The translations under genes were made by a program, and so were the position numbers. A stretch of 64,000 nt of DNA. Source: Longimicrobiales bacterium. GTDB lineage: Bacteria > Gemmatimonadota > Gemmatimonadetes > Longimicrobiales > Gaopeijiaceae. This document shows positions 17,715 to 31,123 of the stretch, in pieces (position 1 is the stretch's first letter; every line of letters starts with the position of its first letter). Location: contig OZ220732.1 of the NCBI GenBank assembly GCA_965116905.1, positions 1,856,001 to 1,920,000 on the forward strand, written 5' to 3'. The notes beneath the pieces were generated by a model. It saw nothing but the letters and a program-made list of their open reading frames with translations. It made no database searches and was not told where the DNA came from.

Positions 17715-19010
17715 TCACCCCAGGGACTGAAGCCTGCTCTCGATCCACGCCACCATCTCGCCCGGCACGCTTGCCCGGCGGGCATGCCGCCGCCAGTCCC
17801 CCACCTCCGCCGCCACCTGTTCGACGATCTCCCGGCCACCCTTCGGCACGTCGAACATTTCTCCCACTTCGAGCAGATCGCGTCGGCTGATCGCCTGGAA
17901 CTTTCCGTTCACCGACATCTGATGCTGGCGCGTCCACGCGTCGTTTTCGGCATAGGTCACGTCGTACGCGGGGGCGAGGCGCCACCTGCCCGCCGGATTC
18001 ATCAGGAAGCCGAAGTTCTTGACGTGGTCGTCGAAGTTCACGGTGGCCACGGTAAAGACCATGCGCCTGAATGCCTCGTTCACCGAGCGCTGTCCGAGCC
18101 CGATGGCGCGCATGGTGTCGAACCAGCCCTCGTAGCTGAAGACGTACTGGTCGTTGAAGTCGACGTGCTGCAGTCCTCCCAGGCTGTGGAAATGAAAGCG
18201 CCGGAAGGAGCCGGTCGCCTCGTCCGGTGCACGGTCGAAGCGCCGCACCATGAAGTGCGCCCGGTCTCCGTCGCGGAAGAGATGCGTCTCGGGCATCTCG
18301 ATCCCCGCCTCCCTCGCCATGCACGAATAGGCGTATTCGATACGCCCCCACGGTCCCGGCCCCCCGGCGGCAACCATGCCCTGTCCCGCGGCCTCCCTGG
18401 TCACCCCGTCGAACTTGATGAGCCATGGTTCGTCGCCGGACCGCGGCGACGCGAATCCCGAGCGCACCTGGCCGGTCCCGCGGTTCCAGAGAATCAGTGC
18501 CTTCGCCCGCGCGCCCCCCGCACTGCCCCCCACCTGCATGATCTCCGGTACCGCCACCGACACGTCCCCCTCGATCACTCGGCGGGCCTGATCCACGAGT
18601 TCCCTTACCTCAAGGGCCTCTTCGGTACCTGGTCCGGGATCCAGGGGAGGGCGGAACTCCAGTGCGCCCATGGCGCGATCGCCGATGTACAGAAGCCTCT
18701 GCAACGGGGACAGCGCGTCGTCCGGCTGCTCTCGGGCCTCAAAGTACCGGCGGATGACGGCGTTTCCGAACTGGTCCGGCAGCGCATCGGCGAACACGCC
18801 CGGCAGACCGGCGAATGCGGGCTTGCGCGCCAGTTCCGGAAAGGACACCGGGCCTTCGCGGCTGGTGGGAAGGTGGATCGGCGAGATTTCGAGGTCGGAG
18901 GCCCGGAACCGGGGGTCGTATTCGAAGGTGATTCGTCCGTCGGGACCCTCTCGGAGCATCCCGGCCTCACGCCCCCAGATCCAGACGCGAACCCTGACAT
19001 CACCAGTCAC
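17715..19010 (-). CDS. hipA: HipA-family Ser/Thr kinase toxin
   Basis: DALPDQFG, P-loop GGSAGGARAK, WLIKFD, NFDDHVKNFGF, WRLAPAYD; overlaps the antitoxin stop. Confidence 0.92.
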   Translation of the reverse strand: MTGDVRVRVWIWGREAGMLREGPDGRITFEYDPRFRASDLEISPIHLPTSREGPVSFPELARKPAFAGLPGVFADALPDQFGNAVIRRYFEAREQPDDALSPLQRLLYIGDRAMGALEFRPPLDPGPGTEEALEVRELVDQARRVIEGDVSVAVPEIMQVGGSAGGARAKALILWNRGTGQVRSGFASPRSGDEPWLIKFDGVTREAAGQGMVAAGGPGPWGRIEYAYSCMAREAGIEMPETHLFRDGDRAHFMVRRFDRAPDEATGSFRRFHFHSLGGLQHVDFNDQYVFSYEGWFDTMRAIGLGQRSVNEAFRRMVFTVATVNFDDHVKNFGFLMNPAGRWRLAPAYDVTYAENDAWTRQHQMSVNGKFQAISRRDLLEVGEMFDVPKGGREIVEQVAAEVGDWRRHARRASVPGEMVAWIESRLQSLG

Positions 19011-19317
19011 GACTCCGCCTCGACGCACGGCGCCTGATCTTCCCTCTCAGCCTCTCGACATCGTACGGGGACACTTCGGGCACGGGGACAAGCGCCTCGA
19101 ACGCCTGCAGCCGGCCCAGCGCACGCATGATCTGCACCAGGTTCCCGGTTCCGACGCTGTGGCCCGCTTCCAGGCGGTTGATCGTGCGCGGGCTGACTCC
19201 GGCGTCGGCGGCAAGGTCGCTGACCCGGCGATTCTGCTGCAGCCGGAGCGCCTTCAGCCGCGCGCCCACTTCGCGAAGCACATCCGGGGTCCGGCTTGTG
19301 GCGACGATCGCTTTCAT
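19000..19317 (-). CDS. HipB-like XRE HTH antitoxin
   Basis: VGARLKALRLQQN...LAADAGVSPRTINRLEAG; directly upstream of hipA. Confidence 0.85.
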   Translation of the reverse strand: MKAIVATSRTPDVLREVGARLKALRLQQNRRVSDLAADAGVSPRTINRLEAGHSVGTGNLVQIMRALGRLQAFEALVPVPEVSPYDVERLRGKIRRRASRRSRDW

Positions 19318-19375
19318 GGCCCGGCAACCTCCTTCCACGACAAAGGTAACCGGGGAGGTGCGGGAATGTCTATAG

Positions 19376-19429
19376 CGTCATATACGGCGTATCATGGTCT
19401 GTACTGGTGTTAGCACGCCATATACGGCG
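19376..19429. promoter_or_regulatory. Two operator-like boxes CG(T/C)CATATACGGCG upstream of hipBA
   Basis: 19376-19389 and 19416-19429, 40 bp apart, with palindromic arms CGCC/GGCG. Confidence 0.65.
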
Positions 19430-19478
19430 GTATGCTACATTAAGGCGGAACGCCACATGCGGCATCATGGCCCAAGCC

Positions 19479-21233
19479 TCAAGCGGCTTTGTTTCCGACC
19501 GGGTCCACGCGCACGGTCACGATGTCGGTGTCGTGGTACTTCTGGTGCCGCACGGCCGTCGCGATGTGGCGCAGGAGGCGCAGGGAGAAATCGCGCTCGA
19601 CCGGGACCTCCGTCACGCTCCCGCCGATGAAGGCCATGCGGTCCTCGATGTTGCCCTCGCCCGCGGCGGCGAGGAACTCGAGTTCGGCTCCGCCCCCCTC
19701 GGCACGCGCCGTAACCCGAAGGCGCCTCACTCCGAAGGCGTCGTCCTCGGCGACCTGGTCCAGGACGATCAGCAACGTCTCCTCGGCCGCCAGCCCCAGC
19801 CTTCGCGCCATCTCGTCGCCCAGTCCGGTACGCGCGGCAAAGTCCTCCAGGAACTCCTGGATCTTCGGCTGGGCCTCGATGTCCAGCGTGGTCTCGATGC
19901 GCCGCCGTCGCGGTCCGGCAAGCTCCATGAACGCGGAGAGCAGGATCGCGGTCAGGCCGCCCGAGGTCATCCCGTTCTCCAGCAGCTGTCCCGCCCAGTT
20001 CCCGAAGTACTCGGACGGGATCTGGCCGCTCTGAAAGCCCGCCCCGATCCAGAACGAGACGCCGATGATCGTGGCCTTGCGGTAGTCGATTCCGTCCTGG
20101 GTGACCATCTCCAGGCCGAGCACGAAGAGGATCGCGATCAACACGATGATGTAGGCGCCGACGACCGGGTTCGGAATGGCCAGGAGCACGGCGGTGGCCT
20201 TGGGGAAGAATGCCAGCGCGATGAACGTGAGCCCGATGCAGACGCCCACGCGCCGCGCGGCGATCCCGGTGATCTCGACGATGGAGACGCTGTTGGAGTA
20301 GGTCGTGTTGGGGACCGTGGCGAGGAGCCCCGACAGGAGGTTGCCCACGCCGTCGGCGGCCACGGCGCCCTGGACCGCGCGGAAGTCGGTCGCGCGGCGT
20401 CGCCGCCAGGAAACCCGCTGGATCGCCATCCCGTCCCCGATGGTCTCGATGGCGCCGACGAGCGTGACGAAGACGAAGGCCGGCAGCATCGTCCAGAACT
20501 CGGGGCTCAGGCGGAGGTCGAACCCCGGCCACCCCGCCGCCGGCACACCGAACCAGAGCGCGTCGCCCACGATGCCGGTGTCGTAGATGCCGTACCCGGC
20601 CGCGACCAGGCACCCCCCGGCGGCGCCGACCACCGAGCCCCACAGGCGCAGTGCTCCTCTGGCCCGCAACACGATCAGGATCGTGATGACCATCGTCGCC
20701 AGCGCGGTCATGGGGGCGGCTTCCGGCGCGGCGCCCTCGGGTGCCTGGAAGACGAGGTCGAAGCCGATGGGCATGACCGTGACCGCAATCAGCATGATCA
20801 CCGTGCCCGCCACCGTGGGCGTGATGACGCGCCGGAGCAGCGACAGCCGCGACGAGATCAGGAACTGGAAGAGCGACGACGCCACGATGAGGGTGGCGAG
20901 CAGCGCGGGGCCTCCGCGTTCGAGCGCCGCCACGGACACCGCGATGAAGACTCCGGACGTCCCCATGAGCAGGATGTACCCGGCCCCGATCCGGCCGCCG
21001 ATGGGCTTCGCCTGGATCAGCGTCGAGATCCCGCAGACGATCAGCACCGCGAATGCCGCCCACGTGAGGTAGGTCTCGCTGCCGCCCCCCGCGCGCACCA
21101 CGATCGCCACCGTGATGACGATCCCCGCGATGTTCAGCAGGATGTACTGGAAGGCGAGCCCGAACGATACCGGGTAGCTGGGGGTCTCGTCGGCCTGGAA
21201 GCGGAGGCCCTGCCGCGTGTCGGGAGAGGTCAT
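19479..21233 (-). CDS. NCS2/NAT (xanthine/uracil permease family) transporter with C-terminal degenerate HATPase-like domain
   Basis: Multiple TMs, RVITPTVAGTVIMLI, AIETIGD, GAVAADGVGN, PNTTYS; soluble C-tail with LAAEETL...FSLRLLRH. Confidence 0.85.
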   Translation of the reverse strand: MTSPDTRQGLRFQADETPSYPVSFGLAFQYILLNIAGIVITVAIVVRAGGGSETYLTWAAFAVLIVCGISTLIQAKPIGGRIGAGYILLMGTSGVFIAVSVAALERGGPALLATLIVASSLFQFLISSRLSLLRRVITPTVAGTVIMLIAVTVMPIGFDLVFQAPEGAAPEAAPMTALATMVITILIVLRARGALRLWGSVVGAAGGCLVAAGYGIYDTGIVGDALWFGVPAAGWPGFDLRLSPEFWTMLPAFVFVTLVGAIETIGDGMAIQRVSWRRRRATDFRAVQGAVAADGVGNLLSGLLATVPNTTYSNSVSIVEITGIAARRVGVCIGLTFIALAFFPKATAVLLAIPNPVVGAYIIVLIAILFVLGLEMVTQDGIDYRKATIIGVSFWIGAGFQSGQIPSEYFGNWAGQLLENGMTSGGLTAILLSAFMELAGPRRRRIETTLDIEAQPKIQEFLEDFAARTGLGDEMARRLGLAAEETLLIVLDQVAEDDAFGVRRLRVTARAEGGGAELEFLAAAGEGNIEDRMAFIGGSVTEVPVERDFSLRLLRHIATAVRHQKYHDTDIVTVRVDPVGNKAA

Positions 21234-22546
21234 GGGTGGCCGTCGATGGCGGCTCGATGGCGCTCGAGGAACGTCTCGAACGCGCGGGCCAGCCTGTCAC
21301 AGTCCTCGTTGTCGTGGGCGAGTGAAACCGAGATGAAGCCGCGGCGCGCGATCCACAGGCCGGCAAGCAGCATCTCGAGGTGGAAGAGGTCGCGAGCGGG
21401 GGCGGGCGTCGCGGCCAGGTCGGAGTGACGGCGGATCGGCGTGCGCTGGAAGTGCACGTTCATGATCGACCCCCGGCCGGTCACCTGCGCGGGTGCGTCC
21501 AGCCGGGTCGCAACGGCGTTCAGGGCGTCGCGCAGTTCATCGCCGCGACGGTTGAGCGTGCGCACCGCCGCGGGCGTGAGCACGTCGCGCAGCCCTGCCA
21601 GGCCCGCGGCCATCGTGAGGGCATTGTTGTTATGCGTGCCGGGGTGGCTGAAATGATCCGGACGGCGCGGGTCGAACCGGTCCATGAGGTCGGCTCGGCC
21701 ACCGAACGCCCCGAAGGAAGCGCCGCCGCCCAGGTATTTGCCGAGGGTCGTCAGGTCCGCGTGGATGCCGAGCAGCTCCTGGAGTCCGCCCGGCGCAAGG
21801 CGCGAGGTCTGCACCTCGTCGAAGATCAGCAGTGCACCGGTGCGCTCCGTGGCGTCCCGCAGCTTGCTCAGGAACGGCCGCGTCCCGGGAATGCAGCCGC
21901 CTCCGCCGAGCATGGGTTCGACGAGCACGCACGCCAGTTCGTCCCCGTGCGTCTCGATCAGCGACCGTGCCGACCCCACGTCGTTGTATTCGCCGACGAT
22001 CCAGCGGAATGGGAGGTTGAGCCGCCGATCCGTCCCGGTGAAGCTCAGGGGACCGCCGTGGTATGCTCCGTCGAACACGAGGACCGTGTCGCGTTCCGTG
22101 ACCGCCCGCGCGAGGCTCACGGCCATCAGGTTCGCCTCGGTCCCCGAGTTCGTGAACCGCACGCGCTCGACCGACGGAAAGCGCCTACAGATCAGCTCCG
22201 CGAATTCCTGCTGGTTCGGGGTGGGGCCGCCGAGCGTGAGGCCGCCCTCGGCCGCAGTCGCGATCGCGGTCCGGATCACCGGATTCGAGTGGCCGTAGAG
22301 GCCGGCCGTGTGGTCGTTCAGGAAGTCGACGAACTCGTGCCCGTCGAGGTCCTGGAGCCTGGCGCCCTCGCCCCGGACGATCGTCACCGGGAAGGGCGCG
22401 TAGTGGTTGACGGTGCGCGTGTCCCCGCCGGGAAGGAATCCCGTGGACCGCTCGAAGCTGGCCTGGCTCAGTGGGTTCGCCGCCGTGTACCGGGCGGCCG
22501 CCTCGGAGGTGAGATCCTGCAGGGTCGGCGTGATTACCGGAGTCAT
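21230..22546 (-). CDS. Class III PLP aminotransferase (GSA-aminomutase-like)
   Basis: RFTNSGTEAN, LLIFDEVQT, DLTTLGKYLGGG, HPGTHNNN. Confidence 0.9.
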   Translation of the reverse strand: MTPVITPTLQDLTSEAAARYTAANPLSQASFERSTGFLPGGDTRTVNHYAPFPVTIVRGEGARLQDLDGHEFVDFLNDHTAGLYGHSNPVIRTAIATAAEGGLTLGGPTPNQQEFAELICRRFPSVERVRFTNSGTEANLMAVSLARAVTERDTVLVFDGAYHGGPLSFTGTDRRLNLPFRWIVGEYNDVGSARSLIETHGDELACVLVEPMLGGGGCIPGTRPFLSKLRDATERTGALLIFDEVQTSRLAPGGLQELLGIHADLTTLGKYLGGGASFGAFGGRADLMDRFDPRRPDHFSHPGTHNNNALTMAAGLAGLRDVLTPAAVRTLNRRGDELRDALNAVATRLDAPAQVTGRGSIMNVHFQRTPIRRHSDLAATPAPARDLFHLEMLLAGLWIARRGFISVSLAHDNEDCDRLARAFETFLERHRAAIDGHP

Positions 22547-22603
22547 GATGGGATAATCGGTGCCAACTGGCGGGAATCGCAAGCCGGGGGATGATGTCCA
22601 CCG

Positions 22604-24391
22604 CTAGCCTGCCGGATCCACCCTCACGGTCACCACATCGATGTCCTCGTACTTGTGGTGCTGCACCGAGGTCGCCAGGTGGCGCAGCAGCCGCAACGAG
22701 AACTCGTGCTCCTCGGCGGTGTCGACCGCGTGTGTGCCGACGACTGCCAGGTGATCCTCGATGTTGCCCTCGGTGCCTCCGGCCAGGAACTCCAGTTCGG
22801 CGCCTCCCGACTCGGGTCGCGCGGTGAGCCGCACCCGACGCTGGCCGGTCTGGCCGTTCTGGCCGCTCTGGCCGCTGGAGCGCGCCTCGTCCCCCTCGCC
22901 TTCGTCCGTCTCTCCGATCAGCAGCAACAGCGTCTCCTCGGCCGCGTGCGCCAACCGGTTGGCCATCCGGTCCCCCAACCCCCGGCGGCTGGCGAAGTCT
23001 TCCAGAAAGCGGGTGATCTTCGGCAGGGAATCCACCTGCAACGCCGTCTGCATGCGCATGCGCCGCGGCCCGGTCAGCTCCGTGAACGCGGTCAGGACGA
23101 GCGCGGTCAGGCCGCCCGAGGTCATCCCGTTGCTCAGCAGCTGTTGCAGGAACGGGGCCAGCCCGTCGGTGGGAATCTGGCCGCTCTGGCAGCCGACACC
23201 GACCCAGAACGAGAACCCGACCACCGTGGCCTTGCGGTAGTCCATGCCGTCCTGCAGCACGATCCTGGTGCCCAGCATGAACAGCACGGCGATGATCACC
23301 ATCGCGTAGGCGCCGAGCACCGGATCCGGGATCACCAGCAGCACCTGCGTCACCTTCGGAAGGAAGGCGAGCACGCAGAAGATCACGCCGATGCACACGC
23401 CGACCCGCCGCGAGGCGATCCCCGTGATCTCGACCACCGAAACGCTGCTCGAATAGGTGGTGTTCGGCACCGTGGAGAACAGCCCGGAAAGCAGGTTGCC
23501 GAAGCCGTCCGCGGCCACGGCTCCCTGAACGGCCCGGTAGTCGGTGGCTCGCCGCTCGCGCCACGAGACCTTCTGGATCCCCACCGCGTCTCCGATCGTC
23601 TCGATCGCCCCCACCAGGGTCACGAAGGTGTAGGCGGGCAGTATGGCCCAGAACGCGGGACCGAAGTCGAACCCCATACCCGGCCAGCCCGCGAGCGGCA
23701 CGCCGACCCACATGGCCTCGCGGATCGGTGCGCCGTCCAGCAGCCCGAAGAACGACGCTGCGATGACCCCGGCGACGATCCCGATCAACGGCCCCCAGAG
23801 CCGAACCGGGCCACTGAACTTCAGCATCACCGCCAGCGTCACCGCCAGCGTCGCCATCACCGTGACCGGTGCCGCGAGGGGTCCGCTGTCCTCCGGCACG
23901 TTGTCCATGAAGTCGAAGAGGAACGGCATCACGTTGACCGCGATCAGCATGATCACGGTGCCCGCCACCGTCGGCGTCAGGATCCGCCGCAGAATCGCCA
24001 GCCGTCCCGCAAGCAGGAACTGGAAGAGCGACGACACGATGATCAGCGTGGCCAGCAGACCCGGTCCCCCCTGCTGTAGCGCCGCCACCGACACCGCGAT
24101 GAACGCCCCCGACGTGCCCATCATCAGCACGTATCCCGATCCCAGTCGGCCCACGCGCCGGGACTGCAGCATGGTGGCCACCCCGCTTACGAAAAGCGCG
24201 CCGAAGGCTCCCCAGGCCAGGTATGCCGCGCTGCTCTCCGCGCTGCGCAGCACGATCGCGACGGTGAGCACGACCCCCCCGATCGCCAGCACCGAGTACT
24301 GAAGGGCAAGCCCGGCGGCCAGCGGCCAGGGTGGTCTTTCGTCGGGTTCGTAGCGGACGCCGTGCGCGGCCCTGCCTGGCTCGGATGCCAT
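22604..24391 (-). CDS. NCS2/NAT transporter paralog with C-terminal degenerate HATPase-like domain
   Basis: Highly similar to 19479..21233 along its full length. Confidence 0.85.
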   Translation of the reverse strand: MASEPGRAAHGVRYEPDERPPWPLAAGLALQYSVLAIGGVVLTVAIVLRSAESSAAYLAWGAFGALFVSGVATMLQSRRVGRLGSGYVLMMGTSGAFIAVSVAALQQGGPGLLATLIIVSSLFQFLLAGRLAILRRILTPTVAGTVIMLIAVNVMPFLFDFMDNVPEDSGPLAAPVTVMATLAVTLAVMLKFSGPVRLWGPLIGIVAGVIAASFFGLLDGAPIREAMWVGVPLAGWPGMGFDFGPAFWAILPAYTFVTLVGAIETIGDAVGIQKVSWRERRATDYRAVQGAVAADGFGNLLSGLFSTVPNTTYSSSVSVVEITGIASRRVGVCIGVIFCVLAFLPKVTQVLLVIPDPVLGAYAMVIIAVLFMLGTRIVLQDGMDYRKATVVGFSFWVGVGCQSGQIPTDGLAPFLQQLLSNGMTSGGLTALVLTAFTELTGPRRMRMQTALQVDSLPKITRFLEDFASRRGLGDRMANRLAHAAEETLLLLIGETDEGEGDEARSSGQSGQNGQTGQRRVRLTARPESGGAELEFLAGGTEGNIEDHLAVVGTHAVDTAEEHEFSLRLLRHLATSVQHHKYEDIDVVTVRVDPAG

Positions 24392-24536
24392 GGATGAGTC
24401 CCTTGTGCGGGAGTTGGTGAGTTGCCCGCACCACAGTCGGGGCGAGAGGTACCGCGTTGTCAAGATCCATGTGGATTCCCGCGCATCAGCCTCGCTCCAC
24501 CCGATCACTCCTGCCCGGATACACGGTGAACATGGA

Positions 24537-27131
24537 TCAGCTCATGCCCGAAACCGTCGCCGCGTCGTCGTCCGCCCCCTTCACGAACCGGTCGAACCAG
24601 TCGATCCAGCGGGCCCACATGTCGAGGTTGGTCTCGATCGCGCGCGGCGTGTGCGACTCGAAGGGGTATTCGTACAGCACCGCCGTCTTTCCGAGCCCGG
24701 TCAGCGCCTGGATCAACCGCTGCGACTGGACGGGGTACGTGCCCGAGTTGTTGTCGTCGGCCCCGTGATATAGCAGCAGCGGGGTGTTGATCTGGTCCGC
24801 CTTGAAGAACGGCGACATCTCCATGTAGATGTGCGGCGCTTCCCAGATGTCGCGCGGTTCGGCCTGGAATCCCATCGGCGTGAGCGACCGGTTGTAGGCA
24901 CCGTTGCCGGCGATCCCGGCCTTGAAGAACGGCGTGTGCGCGAGGAAGTTGGCGGTCGCGAAGGCCCCGTAGCTGTGCCCTCCGTGCCCGATCCGGTCCA
25001 TGTCGATCATGCCCAGCCCGTCGACGGCGCGGATCGCCGCGTACATCCCGTCGACCATGTTCGAGATGTAATAGTCGTTGTAGTTCTCGCCGACGATGGG
25101 GATGTCGGGATACACCAGCGCGTACCCCTGGGTGAGCCAGAGGTCCGACCACCGCAGCCAGGTGAGCCGAGTGTGCGCGTTGTGGTTGCGTGCGCGAATG
25201 GTGGCGTTGGCGAAGTCGTCCTCGCTCCGGTACTCCCGCGGATAGGTCCAGAAGATGGCGGGCACCTTCGTCCCCTCCACGTAGTCGACCGGCAGCGAAA
25301 CCCGCCCCTGAATCTCGAGGCCGTCACGGCGGGTGAACTCGAAGTCGATGCGGCGAGCGGCGGTGAGTTGCGGGAAGGGATCCACGTTGCGGGTCAGGTT
25401 GTCCATCGTGCCGCCCGGGGTGGTGCCACCCGTGCCCCGCGTCCACAGGTGGCTGTCCGGGAACAGGTTCTTGCCCTCGCGGCTGACGATCATGCGCTCC
25501 AGATCCGGGTCGAGCGGCACCAGCGGCTGGTCGAAGGTGTCGCGCGAGCCCTCGAAGAGCCGCTCCGTCATGCCATCGGCGATGGACAGGCGATCCACGA
25601 AGGGCCGCGGCCGGAAGTCCTCCGTCCATCCGGCGCCGCGCAGATACGCGCTCTCCCCGTTCGACGACACCCAGGCGTGCTCGATCCCGTTGCCGGAGCG
25701 CGCCGTCAGCAGGTCGCCGGGGAGCGCCAGTGCGTCGCCCGGGTCATGGAACGGCACCAGCGTGCGGCCCTCGGCAGGGGCGGGCCGCGGAGTGTCCGCC
25801 GAATCCAGCGCGTAGTGGACGATCGCGTCCTCGCCCTCACGGCTGACCGACGCGAACGCATGACGCCCGTCTCGCGAGTAGGCAACCGAGGTGATGCGGT
25901 GCTCGCTACGGGCGATCTCGATTGCGTCCCCGTCTCCGTAGGGTGGGGGAAGGAGCATGATGCGGTCCCCACGGGACCTGTCTGCGCCCTCGGCCTCGTC
26001 ATCGCTGCCGGCCCCGGCCTCGCCGGCGGCGACGCGATGGAGGTACGCGATCCCGCTGCCGTCGGGACGCCAGCGCCAGTCGCGCGGGCCATCCTGCGTC
26101 CCTCCGCCCCTGCCTTCACGCAGTTCACGCTCTTCCAGCATGGCCAGGACCGCGCCCGTCGCGATGTCCAGAACCTCGGTCACGCGCGGGAACCCCGTGT
26201 AGCTGTTGATGAAGGTGAAGGGACGCTCGATCCGCGTAGCGATCAGGTGGCGCCCGTCGGGGCTGAGCGAGATGGACTCGTACATTCCCGGCCCACCGAT
26301 CGGGCGGGCGGCCCGGCCCGGCGCCTGCTCCACGATCTGGCTGCGCGTGTAGTGTTCGAACAGGTCGGCGTCGTGGTCGTCCTGGAGCAGGAACGGCATG
26401 GTGCGATTGGGTGTGGCGGTGTCGCGTGTATGGCGGATGGTCGGGCCGGAGGGAAGGGCGGGTGCCGGTGGCGATGCCGCGCGGTCGTGCGGCGCGGCCA
26501 GCGTGATGAGCGAACCCGAGGGCGTCCACTGCAGCATGCGCGAGGGGGCGGACCCCTGGCCGCGCGAGGATGTCCCGATGCTCGTGATCACGTGGGTGTC
26601 GCCGGCGGGGCGAACCGAGCCGTCGCCGGGCGAGGCGATCCAGACCTGCGTTGCGTCGTCGAGGTGCGCCAGGAAGGCAAGCTGCGACCCGTCCGGCGAC
26701 CACATGAGGTCGCTGACGTAGACGCCCTCCGGCAGTTCAGCATCGGTGAAGGAGCGGTCGGAGAGCGAGAAGAAGCGCAGACCGTACAGGCCGTAGATGT
26801 CCAGGTGCCACGGGCGGTCGGTGCGGGGGCGGATCTCGAGCATCCCGAGACGGAGGGTCTCCTCTCCGACTTCCGCCAGGGTCGAAAGCTCGGTCGAGAG
26901 CGGGATGACGAAGTGGTCGCCGTCCGGGCTGATATGATTCAGGGTGGCGAAATTGGGGTCCGCTGCGAACAGGCCGGCGACAGGGTCGGGCGGCAGGATG
27001 TAGCCGGGTTCAGGATCGAGGCGCTCTCCCGGCGGGATCGGGCCCTGGGCGGACAGCGCGGACGCGACGAAGAGCGGGATCGTGACGGTGGGCAGGCACG
27101 GGAAAACGCGAAGGGCTTGGAGCGTGGTCAT
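24537..27131 (-). CDS. S9 family (prolyl oligopeptidase-like) secreted peptidase
   Basis: GGHSYG nucleophile, GNGAYNRSLTPMGFQAE, HGADDNNSGT, YPFESH. Confidence 0.92.
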   Translation of the reverse strand: MTTLQALRVFPCLPTVTIPLFVASALSAQGPIPPGERLDPEPGYILPPDPVAGLFAADPNFATLNHISPDGDHFVIPLSTELSTLAEVGEETLRLGMLEIRPRTDRPWHLDIYGLYGLRFFSLSDRSFTDAELPEGVYVSDLMWSPDGSQLAFLAHLDDATQVWIASPGDGSVRPAGDTHVITSIGTSSRGQGSAPSRMLQWTPSGSLITLAAPHDRAASPPAPALPSGPTIRHTRDTATPNRTMPFLLQDDHDADLFEHYTRSQIVEQAPGRAARPIGGPGMYESISLSPDGRHLIATRIERPFTFINSYTGFPRVTEVLDIATGAVLAMLEERELREGRGGGTQDGPRDWRWRPDGSGIAYLHRVAAGEAGAGSDDEAEGADRSRGDRIMLLPPPYGDGDAIEIARSEHRITSVAYSRDGRHAFASVSREGEDAIVHYALDSADTPRPAPAEGRTLVPFHDPGDALALPGDLLTARSGNGIEHAWVSSNGESAYLRGAGWTEDFRPRPFVDRLSIADGMTERLFEGSRDTFDQPLVPLDPDLERMIVSREGKNLFPDSHLWTRGTGGTTPGGTMDNLTRNVDPFPQLTAARRIDFEFTRRDGLEIQGRVSLPVDYVEGTKVPAIFWTYPREYRSEDDFANATIRARNHNAHTRLTWLRWSDLWLTQGYALVYPDIPIVGENYNDYYISNMVDGMYAAIRAVDGLGMIDMDRIGHGGHSYGAFATANFLAHTPFFKAGIAGNGAYNRSLTPMGFQAEPRDIWEAPHIYMEMSPFFKADQINTPLLLYHGADDNNSGTYPVQSQRLIQALTGLGKTAVLYEYPFESHTPRAIETNLDMWARWIDWFDRFVKGADDDAATVSGMS

Positions 27132-27178
27132 GCTGGCAGTCCTGACAAGGGGGTTCGGCGAGCCTCGCTGATCGAGAT

Positions 27179-28255
27179 ATGACCGCAAACTACGACATCG
27201 CCGTCATCGGTGCCGGGTTCGCCGGCCTCGCGTGCGCCCGCCGCGCGGCACAGCGCGGGCGCTCCGTAGTGGTCCTGGAGCGCAAGACCGAGCCGGGCGA
27301 GCGGATCCACACGACGGGGATCCTGGTCCGGGAAGCGTGGGAGGAGTGGGCCGCTCCCAGCGCCCTGGTCCGCCGGATCAACCGTGTCAGGGTGTATACG
27401 CCCAGCCACCGCTTCGTCGAACTCAACGGCGACCGCTACTTCTTCATGGCGACGGATACGGCGCGGCTGATGCGTCACCTGGTCGAAGAGACTCGGCGCT
27501 CCGGTGCCGAGGTCCGGTTCGGGGAGACGTTCCGGGGGATGGCGCTGCCGGAGGACCGGTCGCCGGAGACCTCGCTGTCGCTCGGCGATGCCGGAGTCGA
27601 CTGCCGTTTCCTGGTCGGGGCGGACGGCGCCCGCTCCCGCGTAGCCGAGAGCTTCGGCCTCGACCGCAACCGCCGGCTGCTCAAGGGAGTGGAGTGGGAA
27701 TTCGAGCCGTTGAGCAGCGCGGGCGACTGCCTGCACTGCTTCATCGATTCGAAGCATGCACCGGGGTATATCGGGTGGGTGGTGCCGGGCGTGGCCGCGA
27801 CCCAGGTCGGTCTGGCCGTTCATCGCCACCGCCGCGCCGACATGCCGGGCTTCATCCGCAGAATCGATTCCCTGTTCGGGTTGTCGGGAAAGCGCGTGCT
27901 GGAGAAGCGTGGCGGAGTGATCCCCATCGGGGGACTGTTGCGGAACTTCCATGGGGAAGATGTGGTGCTCATCGGAGACTCGGCCGGCATGGTGTCTCCG
28001 CTGACCGCCGGCGGCATTCACAACGCCTACCGGTTCGGCAGGCTCGCCGGCGACGCCATCACGGACTATCTGGAGAGAGGTGGGCCGCACCCGGGCGACG
28101 TCATACGCGGAGCATATGCCAGGGGGAGGTGGAAGCACGCCGCCCGTTGGAGCTACGACCACCTGCCCGTGGCCAGGGCCCTCGACGCCGGACTGGTGAC
28201 GTGGGGGATGTTTCGCAGACTGGCGGGCGCGGTTTTCTTCGACCGGATGCGATAG
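27179..28255 (+). CDS. FAD-dependent oxidoreductase, geranylgeranyl reductase family
   Basis: VIGAGFAG, LVGADGARS, IGDSAGMVSPLTAGGI. Confidence 0.85.
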   Translation: MTANYDIAVIGAGFAGLACARRAAQRGRSVVVLERKTEPGERIHTTGILVREAWEEWAAPSALVRRINRVRVYTPSHRFVELNGDRYFFMATDTARLMRHLVEETRRSGAEVRFGETFRGMALPEDRSPETSLSLGDAGVDCRFLVGADGARSRVAESFGLDRNRRLLKGVEWEFEPLSSAGDCLHCFIDSKHAPGYIGWVVPGVAATQVGLAVHRHRRADMPGFIRRIDSLFGLSGKRVLEKRGGVIPIGGLLRNFHGEDVVLIGDSAGMVSPLTAGGIHNAYRFGRLAGDAITDYLERGGPHPGDVIRGAYARGRWKHAARWSYDHLPVARALDAGLVTWGMFRRLAGAVFFDRMR

Positions 28256-28398: not shown

Positions 28399-29775
28399 TT
28401 GCAGCACCCTGTGAATCGTCGCGCCAGGACCCTCGGGCTACCGTGGCTGTTGGTCGTGTGCATGGTCGCTGCCTGCGGCGGGGGCGAAAGCGGCACCGCG
28501 CCGACCGATACCAATCAGGCGCCGACGGCCGTGGGCTCGATCCCGGCCCAGACCGTAACGGCCGGAGAGGTCGTCTCCTTCGATGTAGCATCGTACTTCA
28601 GCGACCCGGACGGTGACGCGCTGAGCTATGCGGCTGCGACTTCCAGCCCCGCAATCGCGTCGCCCACGGTTTCCGGCAGCACGTTGACGATCGCGGGAGT
28701 GTCCGACGGCGCGGCGACGGTGACGGTGACGGCGCGTGACCCGGGAGGCCTCACTGCGACGCAGAACGCCGCGGTCACGGTGGAGCGGCCAAACGGGCCG
28801 CCGATGCCCGCCGGCTCGATCCCCGCCCAGGTCCTCGAGGCAGACACGGAAGTCTCCTTCAACCTCGCGGAGTACTTCAGCGACCCGGACGGGGACGCGC
28901 TGACCTTCGCGGCATCCTCGTCCAACACGGATGTGGCTGCCACGCAGATTTCGGGCAGCCTCCTGACCATCACCGCCGTGGCACCGGGGGACGCGACGGT
29001 AACGGCGACGGCCACCGATCCGGGCGACCTGTCCGCCGAACAGGCGGTCACGGTCACCGTGGAAGAAGCGTCCATGGACCGGGAGATCCTGACCGCGTTC
29101 TACATTGGAACGGACGGCGCGGGCTGGAGAAACAACGCCAACTGGCTCAGCGAGGGTGCACTTGGCTCCTGGCACGGAGTTACGACGGATGATCGCGACC
29201 GCGTCACTCATCTTGAGCTGCCCAACAACGGCTTGCGCAACGCGATTCCGCGTGAACTCGGTGGACTGAAGAAGCTCGTCCGGCTGGACCTGAACAACAA
29301 TCGGTTTCTGAAAGGGATGATTCCGCGAGAACTCGGCGATCTCGAAGACCTGGAATGGCTGGATCTCAGCGAGACCCTGTTCTTCGCTCGCGGCGCGCTT
29401 CCTCCCGAGCTTGGGCAACTGAAGAAGCTGAAGCACCTCGACCTCAGCGAGATCGTCTGGTGGTCGCCTGACGATCCGACGATACCGTCGGAATGGGGGA
29501 ACATGGAGAGTCTGGAAACCCTGAACCTGAGCCACATCGGACTCAGGGGCATACTCCCTCCGCAGCTCGGCAATCTGACAAACCTCAAGCGCCTCGAAAT
29601 CAGCTACAATGTGTTCGAAGGGTCGATCCCGCGTGAATTCCTGAATCTCATGCTTGACAGGTTTTACTGGGTCGCGACGCAACAGCTGTGTGCTCCCGCC
29701 GACGACGAATTCCAGGCGTGGCTCAACGCGATTCCCGACCACAAGGGTCACTGGACCTGTGCGTCGGGTGGATAG
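28399..29775 (+). CDS. Lipoprotein with two Ig/cadherin-like repeats and LRR domain
   Basis: Lipobox VAAC; YFSDPDGDAL x2; NWLS...WHGV cap; LxxLxxLDL..N...G.IP repeats. Confidence 0.9.
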   Translation: MQHPVNRRARTLGLPWLLVVCMVAACGGGESGTAPTDTNQAPTAVGSIPAQTVTAGEVVSFDVASYFSDPDGDALSYAAATSSPAIASPTVSGSTLTIAGVSDGAATVTVTARDPGGLTATQNAAVTVERPNGPPMPAGSIPAQVLEADTEVSFNLAEYFSDPDGDALTFAASSSNTDVAATQISGSLLTITAVAPGDATVTATATDPGDLSAEQAVTVTVEEASMDREILTAFYIGTDGAGWRNNANWLSEGALGSWHGVTTDDRDRVTHLELPNNGLRNAIPRELGGLKKLVRLDLNNNRFLKGMIPRELGDLEDLEWLDLSETLFFARGALPPELGQLKKLKHLDLSEIVWWSPDDPTIPSEWGNMESLETLNLSHIGLRGILPPQLGNLTNLKRLEISYNVFEGSIPREFLNLMLDRFYWVATQQLCAPADDEFQAWLNAIPDHKGHWTCASGG

Positions 29776-31123
29776 GGCAACAGGGCTCGGCCCGGTCCTG
29801 CTGTGGGTCGGGTGGATGGTCGCCTGCGGCGGCGACGGCGGCGGCACGGGACCGTCCGATGACAACCGGGCCCCGGCGGCCGTGGGCACGATACCGGCGC
29901 AAACGGTCACGGCTGGGGAGATCGTGTCCCTCGATGTCACCTCCTACTTCAGTGATCCGGACGGCGATGCGCTGACCTACGCGGCCGCAACGTCCAGCCC
30001 CGCGGTCGCGTCGCCGACGGTTTCGGGCACGACCCTGACGATCGCGGGAGTGTCCGAGGGTTCGGCGGCGGTGACCGTCACGGCCAGCGACACCGGGGGA
30101 CTCACCGCGACCCAGAACGTCTCCGTGACGGTGCAGCGGCCCAACGAGGCTCCAGCCGTTACCGGAACAATCCCTCCCCAGGTCATCGATGCCGGTGGCG
30201 AGGTCTCCGTCAACCTTGCGGACTATTTCGGCGATCCCGACGGGGACGCGCTGATCTATTCGGCCTCGTCGTCCAGCGTCACCGTGGCCACCGTGCGGGT
30301 CGCGGGCAGCATCATGACCATCGCCGGGGCGGCGCCGGGCGACGCGACCGTGACCGCGACCGCCACCGACCCCGGTGACCTCTCCGCGAGCCAGGCCGTG
30401 ATGGTGACGGTCGAAGAGCCGTCGATGGACCGGGAGATCCTGCGCACGCTCTTCATCAACACGAGCGGAGGGAGCTGGACCAACAGCGGTGGCTGGCTGA
30501 CCGACGCCCCGCTCGACGACTGGTACGGCGTCAAGGCCGACAATCGTGACCGAGTTTCGGCGCTGGACCTGCCGGACAATTGGCTGCAGAACCGGATTCC
30601 GGGCGAACTCGGCGGACTGAAGCTTCTGGTCCGGCTGGACCTCAGCGAGAACAGGATGGAGGGCATGATCCCGCGCGAACTCGGCGACCTGGCGAATCTC
30701 GAGTGGCTGGACCTCAGCAACAGCCTGTTCTTCGCGCGCGGCACGATTCCGCCCGAGCTCGGCAAACTGAAGAAGCTGAAGCGGATGGACCTCAGCGAGA
30801 CCAGCTTCTTCGGGAGTGACGCCCGTCTTCCGAGTGAATTCGCGAATCTGGAGAGCCTGGAGCGACTGGACCTGAGAGATGCCGATCTGCATGGCAAGCT
30901 TCCGGTGCAACTGGGCGAGCTCCAGAATCTCAAGTGGCTGGACATCAGCGACAATTGGATGGAGGGCGAAATCCCGCGCGAGTGGATGAACCTCGATCTC
31001 GAGTACTTCCACTGGAAGCCCATCCTGGACAGCGTCGATCTCTGCGCGCCCGCCGATGCGGCTTTCCAGGCGTGGCTGAATTCGATTCCCGACCATGAGG
31101 GGGGTCGGACTTGCGGCGGATAG
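29759..31123 (+). CDS. Tandem paralog: Ig-like plus LRR lipoprotein
   Basis: MVACGG lipobox and same architecture; start uncertain (GTG 29759 or 29768). Confidence 0.88.
   Translation: MRRVDRATGLGPVLLWVGWMVACGGDGGGTGPSDDNRAPAAVGTIPAQTVTAGEIVSLDVTSYFSDPDGDALTYAAATSSPAVASPTVSGTTLTIAGVSEGSAAVTVTASDTGGLTATQNVSVTVQRPNEAPAVTGTIPPQVIDAGGEVSVNLADYFGDPDGDALIYSASSSSVTVATVRVAGSIMTIAGAAPGDATVTATATDPGDLSASQAVMVTVEEPSMDREILRTLFINTSGGSWTNSGGWLTDAPLDDWYGVKADNRDRVSALDLPDNWLQNRIPGELGGLKLLVRLDLSENRMEGMIPRELGDLANLEWLDLSNSLFFARGTIPPELGKLKKLKRMDLSETSFFGSDARLPSEFANLESLERLDLRDADLHGKLPVQLGELQNLKWLDISDNWMEGEIPREWMNLDLEYFHWKPILDSVDLCAPADAAFQAWLNSIPDHEGGRTCGG

Follow-up and report, generated by a model that had tools for sequence, protein, structure and literature searches.

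Twin NCS2-fold permeases of a Longimicrobiales bacterium with a predicted RsbW-type pseudokinase tail, a candidate dock for a nitrogen-linked STAS switch

A 64,000-nucleotide stretch of Longimicrobiales bacterium contig OZ220732.1 (positions 1,856,001 to 1,920,000; hereafter the window) encodes twin permeases on the minus strand, subtype A (P0002, 22604..24391, 595 amino acids [aa]) and, downstream of it, subtype B (P0001, 19479..21233, 584 aa). The two are 60% identical, and each joins an NCS2/SLC23-fold core to a C-terminal tail that is predicted to be an RsbW-fold pseudokinase. An initial annotation made from the sequence had described a pair of NCS2 permeases with tails of about 135-150 aa; both proteins do match Pfam PF00860 over residues 26-401 (151.5 and 163.5 bits, gathering threshold 27), and the tails measure 152 aa in A (22607..23062, minus strand, with a Gly/Gln-rich insert following the N-box helix) and 143 aa in B (19482..19910, minus strand, residues 442-584). 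From sequence and structure models we tentatively propose, while rating its chances somewhat short of even, that the tail is an ATP-free dock for the unphosphorylated STAS protein of a partner-switching cassette and gates uptake by nitrogen status. The broader proposition that the tail binds STAS in either direction, making the permease a gated transporter or a transceptor, seems reasonably probable.

The fold of the tail is faint at the level of sequence. Taken alone, the two tails score 13.7 and 14.3 bits against HATPase_c_2 (PF13581; gathering threshold 27.4, E 0.04-0.07), and a score of E≤0.01 against this profile is seen in 10 of 97 members of the family, so that the fold needed a separate test. 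PDB sequence searches with tail profiles gave no RsbW match, and in the ESM Atlas a 0.93 lead pointed to a cluster containing 15% HATPase_c_2; only structural and profile-profile comparison detected RsbW. An AlphaFold model of the tail from a 97-row alignment (predicted local distance difference test [pLDDT] 86) has the strand-helix-helix-strand-strand-helix-helix-strand-strand order of RsbW, with a variable, low-confidence lid region (pLDDT <50 at model residues 97-102). Its best Foldseek matches are RsbW, UsfX and SpoIIAB, and in an exhaustive structural alignment against 48,161 chains the six with Z≥8 are all RsbW-type (UsfX 14.6, RsbW 14.0, Rv1364c 14.0, SpoIIAB 13.0, SiaB 11.3, LvrC 10.1; next 7.2). 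A comparison of the tail profile with a profile of 35 intact kinases gave a probability of 89% (E 2e-6), against E≥1 for reversed-sequence controls. The RsbW-like fold read from the sequence pattern by the initial annotation is thus confirmed as a predicted Bergerat fold of the RsbW/SpoIIAB/UsfX type (HATPase_c_2; PDB 6m36/6m37, 1l0o, 8ih8), with shared topology, Z of 13-14.6 and root-mean-square deviation of 2.3-3.2 at 10-16% identity. In a full-length model of permease B, the twin chosen for full-length prediction (pLDDT 85.6), the last membrane helix ends at residue 439 and strand 1 of the tail begins at 444. The tail is under purifying selection (nonsynonymous to synonymous rate ratio [dN/dS] 0.05-0.42 in 28 orthologue pairs; core 0.05-0.20) and is therefore no product of read-through.

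The kinase had also been called dead, a description that holds for its nucleotide site. Across 117 tails at 50% identity (the domain-covering members of the best 150 of 713 family clusters), the N-box Asn is found in 1/116, the D-box Asp in 0/116 and both G2 glycines of the GxG motif in 0/117; each is invariant (35/35) in the intact kinases, which makes canonical ATP binding by the tail very unlikely. The catalytic Glu (E485 of subtype B) is nevertheless kept in 117/117 tails, as in 35/35 intact kinases. The motifs that had been singled out (EETLL, xFSL, GNIED, H(Q/H)KY) are all present in both twins; across the family, though, GNIED keeps its G in just 19% and HQKY its K in just 29%. Conserved residues of the subtype B tail are R478, E484, E485, N528, S550, R552, H556, H563 and D570; N528, D531 and H563 are conserved family-wide, and the only invariant columns across 117 full-length proteins, E485, R552 and H563, all lie within the tail.

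Passages of PMC7340262 describe hydrogen bonds to RsbV from RsbW R23, D42, K44/S48, E49 and Y118. On that excerpted account, the STAS-contact residues map onto tail positions 459, R478, 480, E484, E485 and R552, and four of these six fall within the set of 17 columns, out of 135, whose conservation is ≥90% (P=0.002; 0.012 without E485). The four are 92-100% conserved, with chemistry changed relative to Bacillus RsbW. The tail resembles RsbW, SpoIIAB and UsfX in its catalytic Glu and, in part, in its conserved contact positions, and differs from them in its missing ATP motifs, in being part of a transporter or held at the membrane by a single helix, and in that most of its loci have no adjacent STAS or sigma gene.

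The same domain occurs without a permease. In the source genome the tail has seven matches: six are permeases, and the other is a short gene encoding one N-terminal membrane helix (L012:8013-8507; G000:1813012-1813509); six of the seven NCS2 genes carry the tail, and the tail-less seventh is presumably AzgA-like. The short gene was confirmed by sequence in 14/19 genus genomes at a largely syntenic site (L043-L055), and in three genomes it stands in tandem with a soluble copy. Among 86 free-tail matches, 74 clusters were examined, 46 with one membrane helix and 28 soluble. They keep E485, H556 and D570 at 100% and R552, H563 and N528 at 98%, with dN/dS of 0.11-0.29, and in a quick tree they form a single clade (Shimodaira-Hasegawa-like approximate likelihood-ratio test 99) nested, with moderate support, among fused tails. 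These residues are kept in proteins that have no core, so the conserved surface of a tail separated from its transporter probably serves to bind a partner other than that core. Tail fusions to PAS, thiolase and DctM among the best 150 representatives were set aside, each being an isolated case with the look of a frameshift or chimera.

The family is large and widely spread, with 713 clusters at 50% identity and at least 589 GTDB stretches; the best 73 GTDB loci include Alpha- and Gammaproteobacteria, Nitrospinota, Binatia, Latescibacterota, Dadabacteria, Spirochaetia and Rhodothermales. The few source annotations seen for it read 'hypothetical protein' or 'purine/pyrimidine permease'. Closer to the source genome, the tail is present in 19/19 and a further 10/10 genomes of the genus, in 8/61 of the taxonomic family and in 0/12 from other families of the order, and tail-bearing genomes hold 1-12 family copies. 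Copy number turns over: of the broken family members (L056 in G001; G004:C137; G150:C4), one has lost an internal stretch, so that the end of the tail directly follows the first helices, and the others are frameshifted.

The source genome contains two complete STAS-kinase-phosphatase modules away from the twins. The candidate partner belongs to a partner-switching cassette (L204, G000:2721000-2736000) of STAS (G000:2726521-2726856), kinase, receiver-SpoIIE phosphatase, binding protein and HAMP histidine kinase; glnE and amt, joined by glnA in relatives (L205-L215), are interspersed among these genes, and 8/12 cassette loci contain glnA, glnE or amt. No sigma factor was seen in cassette loci L204-L215, and a literature search found no account of the cassette. 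The cassette-type STAS is single-copy in 51/51 genus genomes and occurs in 7/8 tail-bearing versus 1/53 tail-less genomes of the taxonomic family; a close STAS is present in 5/5 tail-bearing genomes of other phyla, and the cassette kinase lies within 6 kb of the permease in 4/73 GTDB loci. Nine cassette kinases have K/R (six) or Q (three) at the position of R478, D/E at that of E484 (9/9) and H at that of R552 (8/9). In the closest 56 of 99 aligned rows (56/56), the residue of the cassette STAS that corresponds to RsbV R87 is Glu, which would be charge-complementary to R478 of the tail, and the fit of the tail profile is somewhat better to cassette kinases (92.7%) than to 28 other kinases (79.4%). 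A lone STAS gene elsewhere in the source genome (L148:1483-1827; G000:391400-391744), with no neighbouring kinase, keeps the phosphorylatable Ser and has Phe for the conserved Asp of the G-x-x-D motif; its product is a second candidate partner. The third free STAS of the source genome, a housekeeping protein, is encoded at G000:2156706-2157035.

Docking-face conservation, free-standing tails and co-occurrence lend indirect support to the STAS partner that the initial annotation had raised. In the mechanism we propose, unphosphorylated STAS of the one cassette would bind the predicted docking tail, would not be phosphorylated there, and would be released once phosphorylated by the intact kinase. 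Because the tail begins five residues past the last gate-domain helix, the transport cycle would be biased by such binding. In this way a single nitrogen-linked switch would govern numerous paralogues whose cargo differs and is probably not nucleobases. Free tails would serve as sinks for STAS, and each twin would likely function as a homodimer of its own, its cargo distinct from that of the other. Our working analogy is GlnK-AmtB, in which a small nitrogen-status protein docks on the cytoplasmic face of a transporter; the folds there are unrelated, and here the dock would be a pseudokinase and the switch a putatively Ser-phosphorylated STAS.

Several observations weigh against this proposal. 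A free STAS gene is found in 0/99 loci around tail genes (in genome G162 one lies 7.4 kb from a tail gene, outside the flank examined), the cassette is ~850 kb from the twins in the source genome, and the match of the tail profile to the cassette kinase of that genome is poor (E 0.68). One genome (G109) has a tail without a cassette-type STAS and another (G107) the reverse. The tail-bearing genomes of the taxonomic family are also eight of the nine richest in candidates for a leucine-rich-repeat (LRR)/immunoglobulin-like (Ig-like) protein of symbiont type, which served as a control; as this control is most abundant in largely the same genomes, the co-occurrence of tail and STAS may reflect habitat or kinship, and because kin and habitat are not independent we do not take the Fisher P values as proof. 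On the side of the protein, the equivalent of RsbW R23, as given in the passages cited above, is unconserved and mostly Asp; R552 could form an internal salt bridge with E484/E485; N528 and S550 are located just before predicted helices, and some tail conservation may be structural. The mapping from RsbW to the tail itself relies on a weak profile alignment at 13% identity.

The permease core belongs with NCS2/NAT/SLC23 (UapA 5i6c, UraA, SVCT1), with UapA, SVCT1 and UraA, all of the 7+7 fold, taking Foldseek ranks 1-13 for full-length B. The twins fall below the cut-off of NCBIfam TIGR00801 (177.6 and 181.1 against 291.8), and that of NF037981 is reached by P0002 only. In the passages of PMC5972032 on which we relied, the nucleobase NAT signature in transmembrane helix 10 (TM10) requires Q/E4, N5 and G7. 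Aligned to UapA on this basis, the twins (subtype B residues 308-323, 20265..20312, minus strand) share T1, Y2, S3, T12 and G13 with the motif and have N or S, S and S at positions 4, 5 and 7; the TM1 His is replaced by Tyr30, and TM8 E263 and D267 are retained. They thus fail the nucleobase signature, and the label "nucleobase permease" is unwarranted by their sequence. In 29 divergent full-length representatives at 50% clustering, mean top-residue conservation is 0.40 in the substrate site, 0.81 in an Arg-rich TM8-9 loop that distinguishes the twins from NCS2/NAT/SLC23 as does the folded C-terminal domain (residues 272-288 in B, 20370..20420, minus strand; cytoplasmic by analogy with UraA/UapA), and 0.94 in the tail motif; the TM8 Glu is kept in 5/29 and is Lys/Arg in 18/29. 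With the signature lost and the substrate site hypervariable, the cargo is likely varied and not a classical nucleobase.

Neighbouring genes revealed no common pathway across 83 loci. The class-III aminotransferase between the twins (21230..22546, minus strand; HemL-like, below cut-off) is a lineage-limited insert whose stop codon overlaps the ATG of permease B. We rejected it as a cargo clue, since it is beside a permease in only 7/83 loci, two of them from one genome, and cargo is therefore not defined by this enzyme. Two paralogues (L010:7609-9369 and L011:6778-8535), possibly anion-binding, have Arg or Lys for the TM8 Glu and rewritten TM10 motifs; one adjoins a polyketide synthase and the other is inside a tripartite ATP-independent periplasmic (TRAP) transporter operon. 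In locus L119, four permease-tail genes that differ in their substrate motifs stand in tandem, one of them truncated where the locus ends. Molybdopterin dehydrogenase subunit genes adjoin a family member in L100 and L114, a hint of N-heterocycle cargo in some lineages.

The conservation contrast between the substrate site and the loop or tail motif would also fit a transceptor array. Here the paralogues would mainly sense solutes, and ligand would expose or hide the tail, sequestering or freeing a shared STAS, so that one switch would take input from many sensors, much as one kinase does from chemoreceptors; 1-12 family copies per genome facing a single STAS of the cassette type would fit. The variable site is, however, equally compatible with varied cargo, the transport scaffold residues T322, G323 and R327 stay conserved (0.85), the twins keep TM8 E263/D267, and no output gene was identified. 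We regard sensing as the main role as unlikely, if worth keeping in view. Its fullest form, a chemoreceptor-like class in which up to a dozen SLC23-fold paralogues with diversified sites report through a conserved pseudokinase tail to a single STAS switch linked to nitrogen and tuned by free decoy tails, some anchored in the membrane and some soluble, is likewise improbable in our estimate.

Another account dispenses with STAS altogether. The tail would act within the transporter dimer, its acidic face set on the Arg-rich TM8-9 loop or paired tail to tail through strand 1/helix 1, and would stabilise or gate the dimer. Conservation of the loop motif parallels that of the tail, the linker is only five residues, STAS genes are not neighbours of tail genes, and RsbW dimerises through alpha1/beta1 according to passages of PMC7340262. 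Free tails argue the other way, as one clade nested among fused ones keeps the same residues without any core, and we consider a purely intra-dimer role unlikely. Much more doubtful is a pocket re-purposed for a small molecule or metal (H563, D570, H556, N528) as an allosteric metabolite sensor: H563 is invariant and the D570 position, D/E in 97%, corresponds to the G-N/T next to where intact kinases bind nucleotide, but all ATP-coordinating residues are lost and the lid is variable and of low model confidence.

Sequence comparison resolves the twins as two old subtypes, in separate clades and linked in fixed order. Among 51 genus genomes, at an assignment threshold of E≤1e-255, A is in 35 and B in 35, both in 29, only A in 6, only B in 6 and neither in 10; among the B-only genomes, a contig end truncates A in one, and three carry a further family member alongside. 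In all 29 pairs the genes share a strand with A first and are at most 15 kb apart (14 pairs within 200 bp, 13 with an insert of 1.4-2.3 kb, 2 with 13-15 kb), and in 7/29 the gap is the ~1.4 kb of the aminotransferase-type insert. An obligate heterodimer of A and B, the strong form of an idea in the initial annotation, is highly improbable despite this invariant order and strand, which linkage after tandem duplication can explain: it is argued against by complete genomes with only one subtype (single-contig G001, only B; G106, only A; G072, of another genus, only B) and by genomes with one family member in total (G017, G108, G110).

Around the twins, no sigma-70 promoter or terminator match was found across window positions 19000-27400. 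Directly downstream is a HipA-like kinase with a helix-turn-helix (HTH) gene (17715-19338), and HipA-like/HTH-like genes adjoin the twins or sit between them in loci L067 and L063. Upstream lie an S9 peptidase with a beta-propeller and a divergent geranylgeranyl-reductase-like flavin adenine dinucleotide (FAD) protein (24537-28255), both also seen in further genomes upstream of A-type genes, followed by two tandem Ig-like/LRR lipoproteins, 65% identical to each other, that we take to be symbiont-type (28399-31123). Database entries 96% identical in the tail are labelled Gemmatimonadota. Five runs labelled sponge metagenome, from three studies, contain 0.34-0.40 of the sampled words of the locus, and the two compared in detail yielded long, close pieces of it; runs with small word shares were set aside. 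A run labelled metatranscriptomic was rejected as evidence of expression because genes and intergenic DNA are covered alike.

Parts of this architecture are already known, and its overall layout mirrors SulP-STAS. SulP/SLC26 transporters share a related 7+7 fold with a partner-switching-derived domain directly after TM14, but the twins have no C-terminal STAS and carry the kinase half instead, as a mirror image; the two SulP-STAS genes of the source genome are separate from them. Full-text literature searches, whose coverage mostly excludes subscription papers, returned no description of a permease-pseudokinase fusion, and the word 'fusion' is not present in the passages seen of the NAT/NCS2 classification paper PMC6308229. 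If our proposal is true, partner-switching, known as sigma-factor control, would act directly at a transporter through a pseudokinase, and the SLC23 branch would gain a cytoplasmic regulatory domain that mirrors the STAS domain of SLC26. It would also provide a testable model for the coupling of such domains to elevator transporters. With close copies of the locus in sponge metagenomes, the finding may bear on how symbionts regulate their uptake of organic nitrogen.

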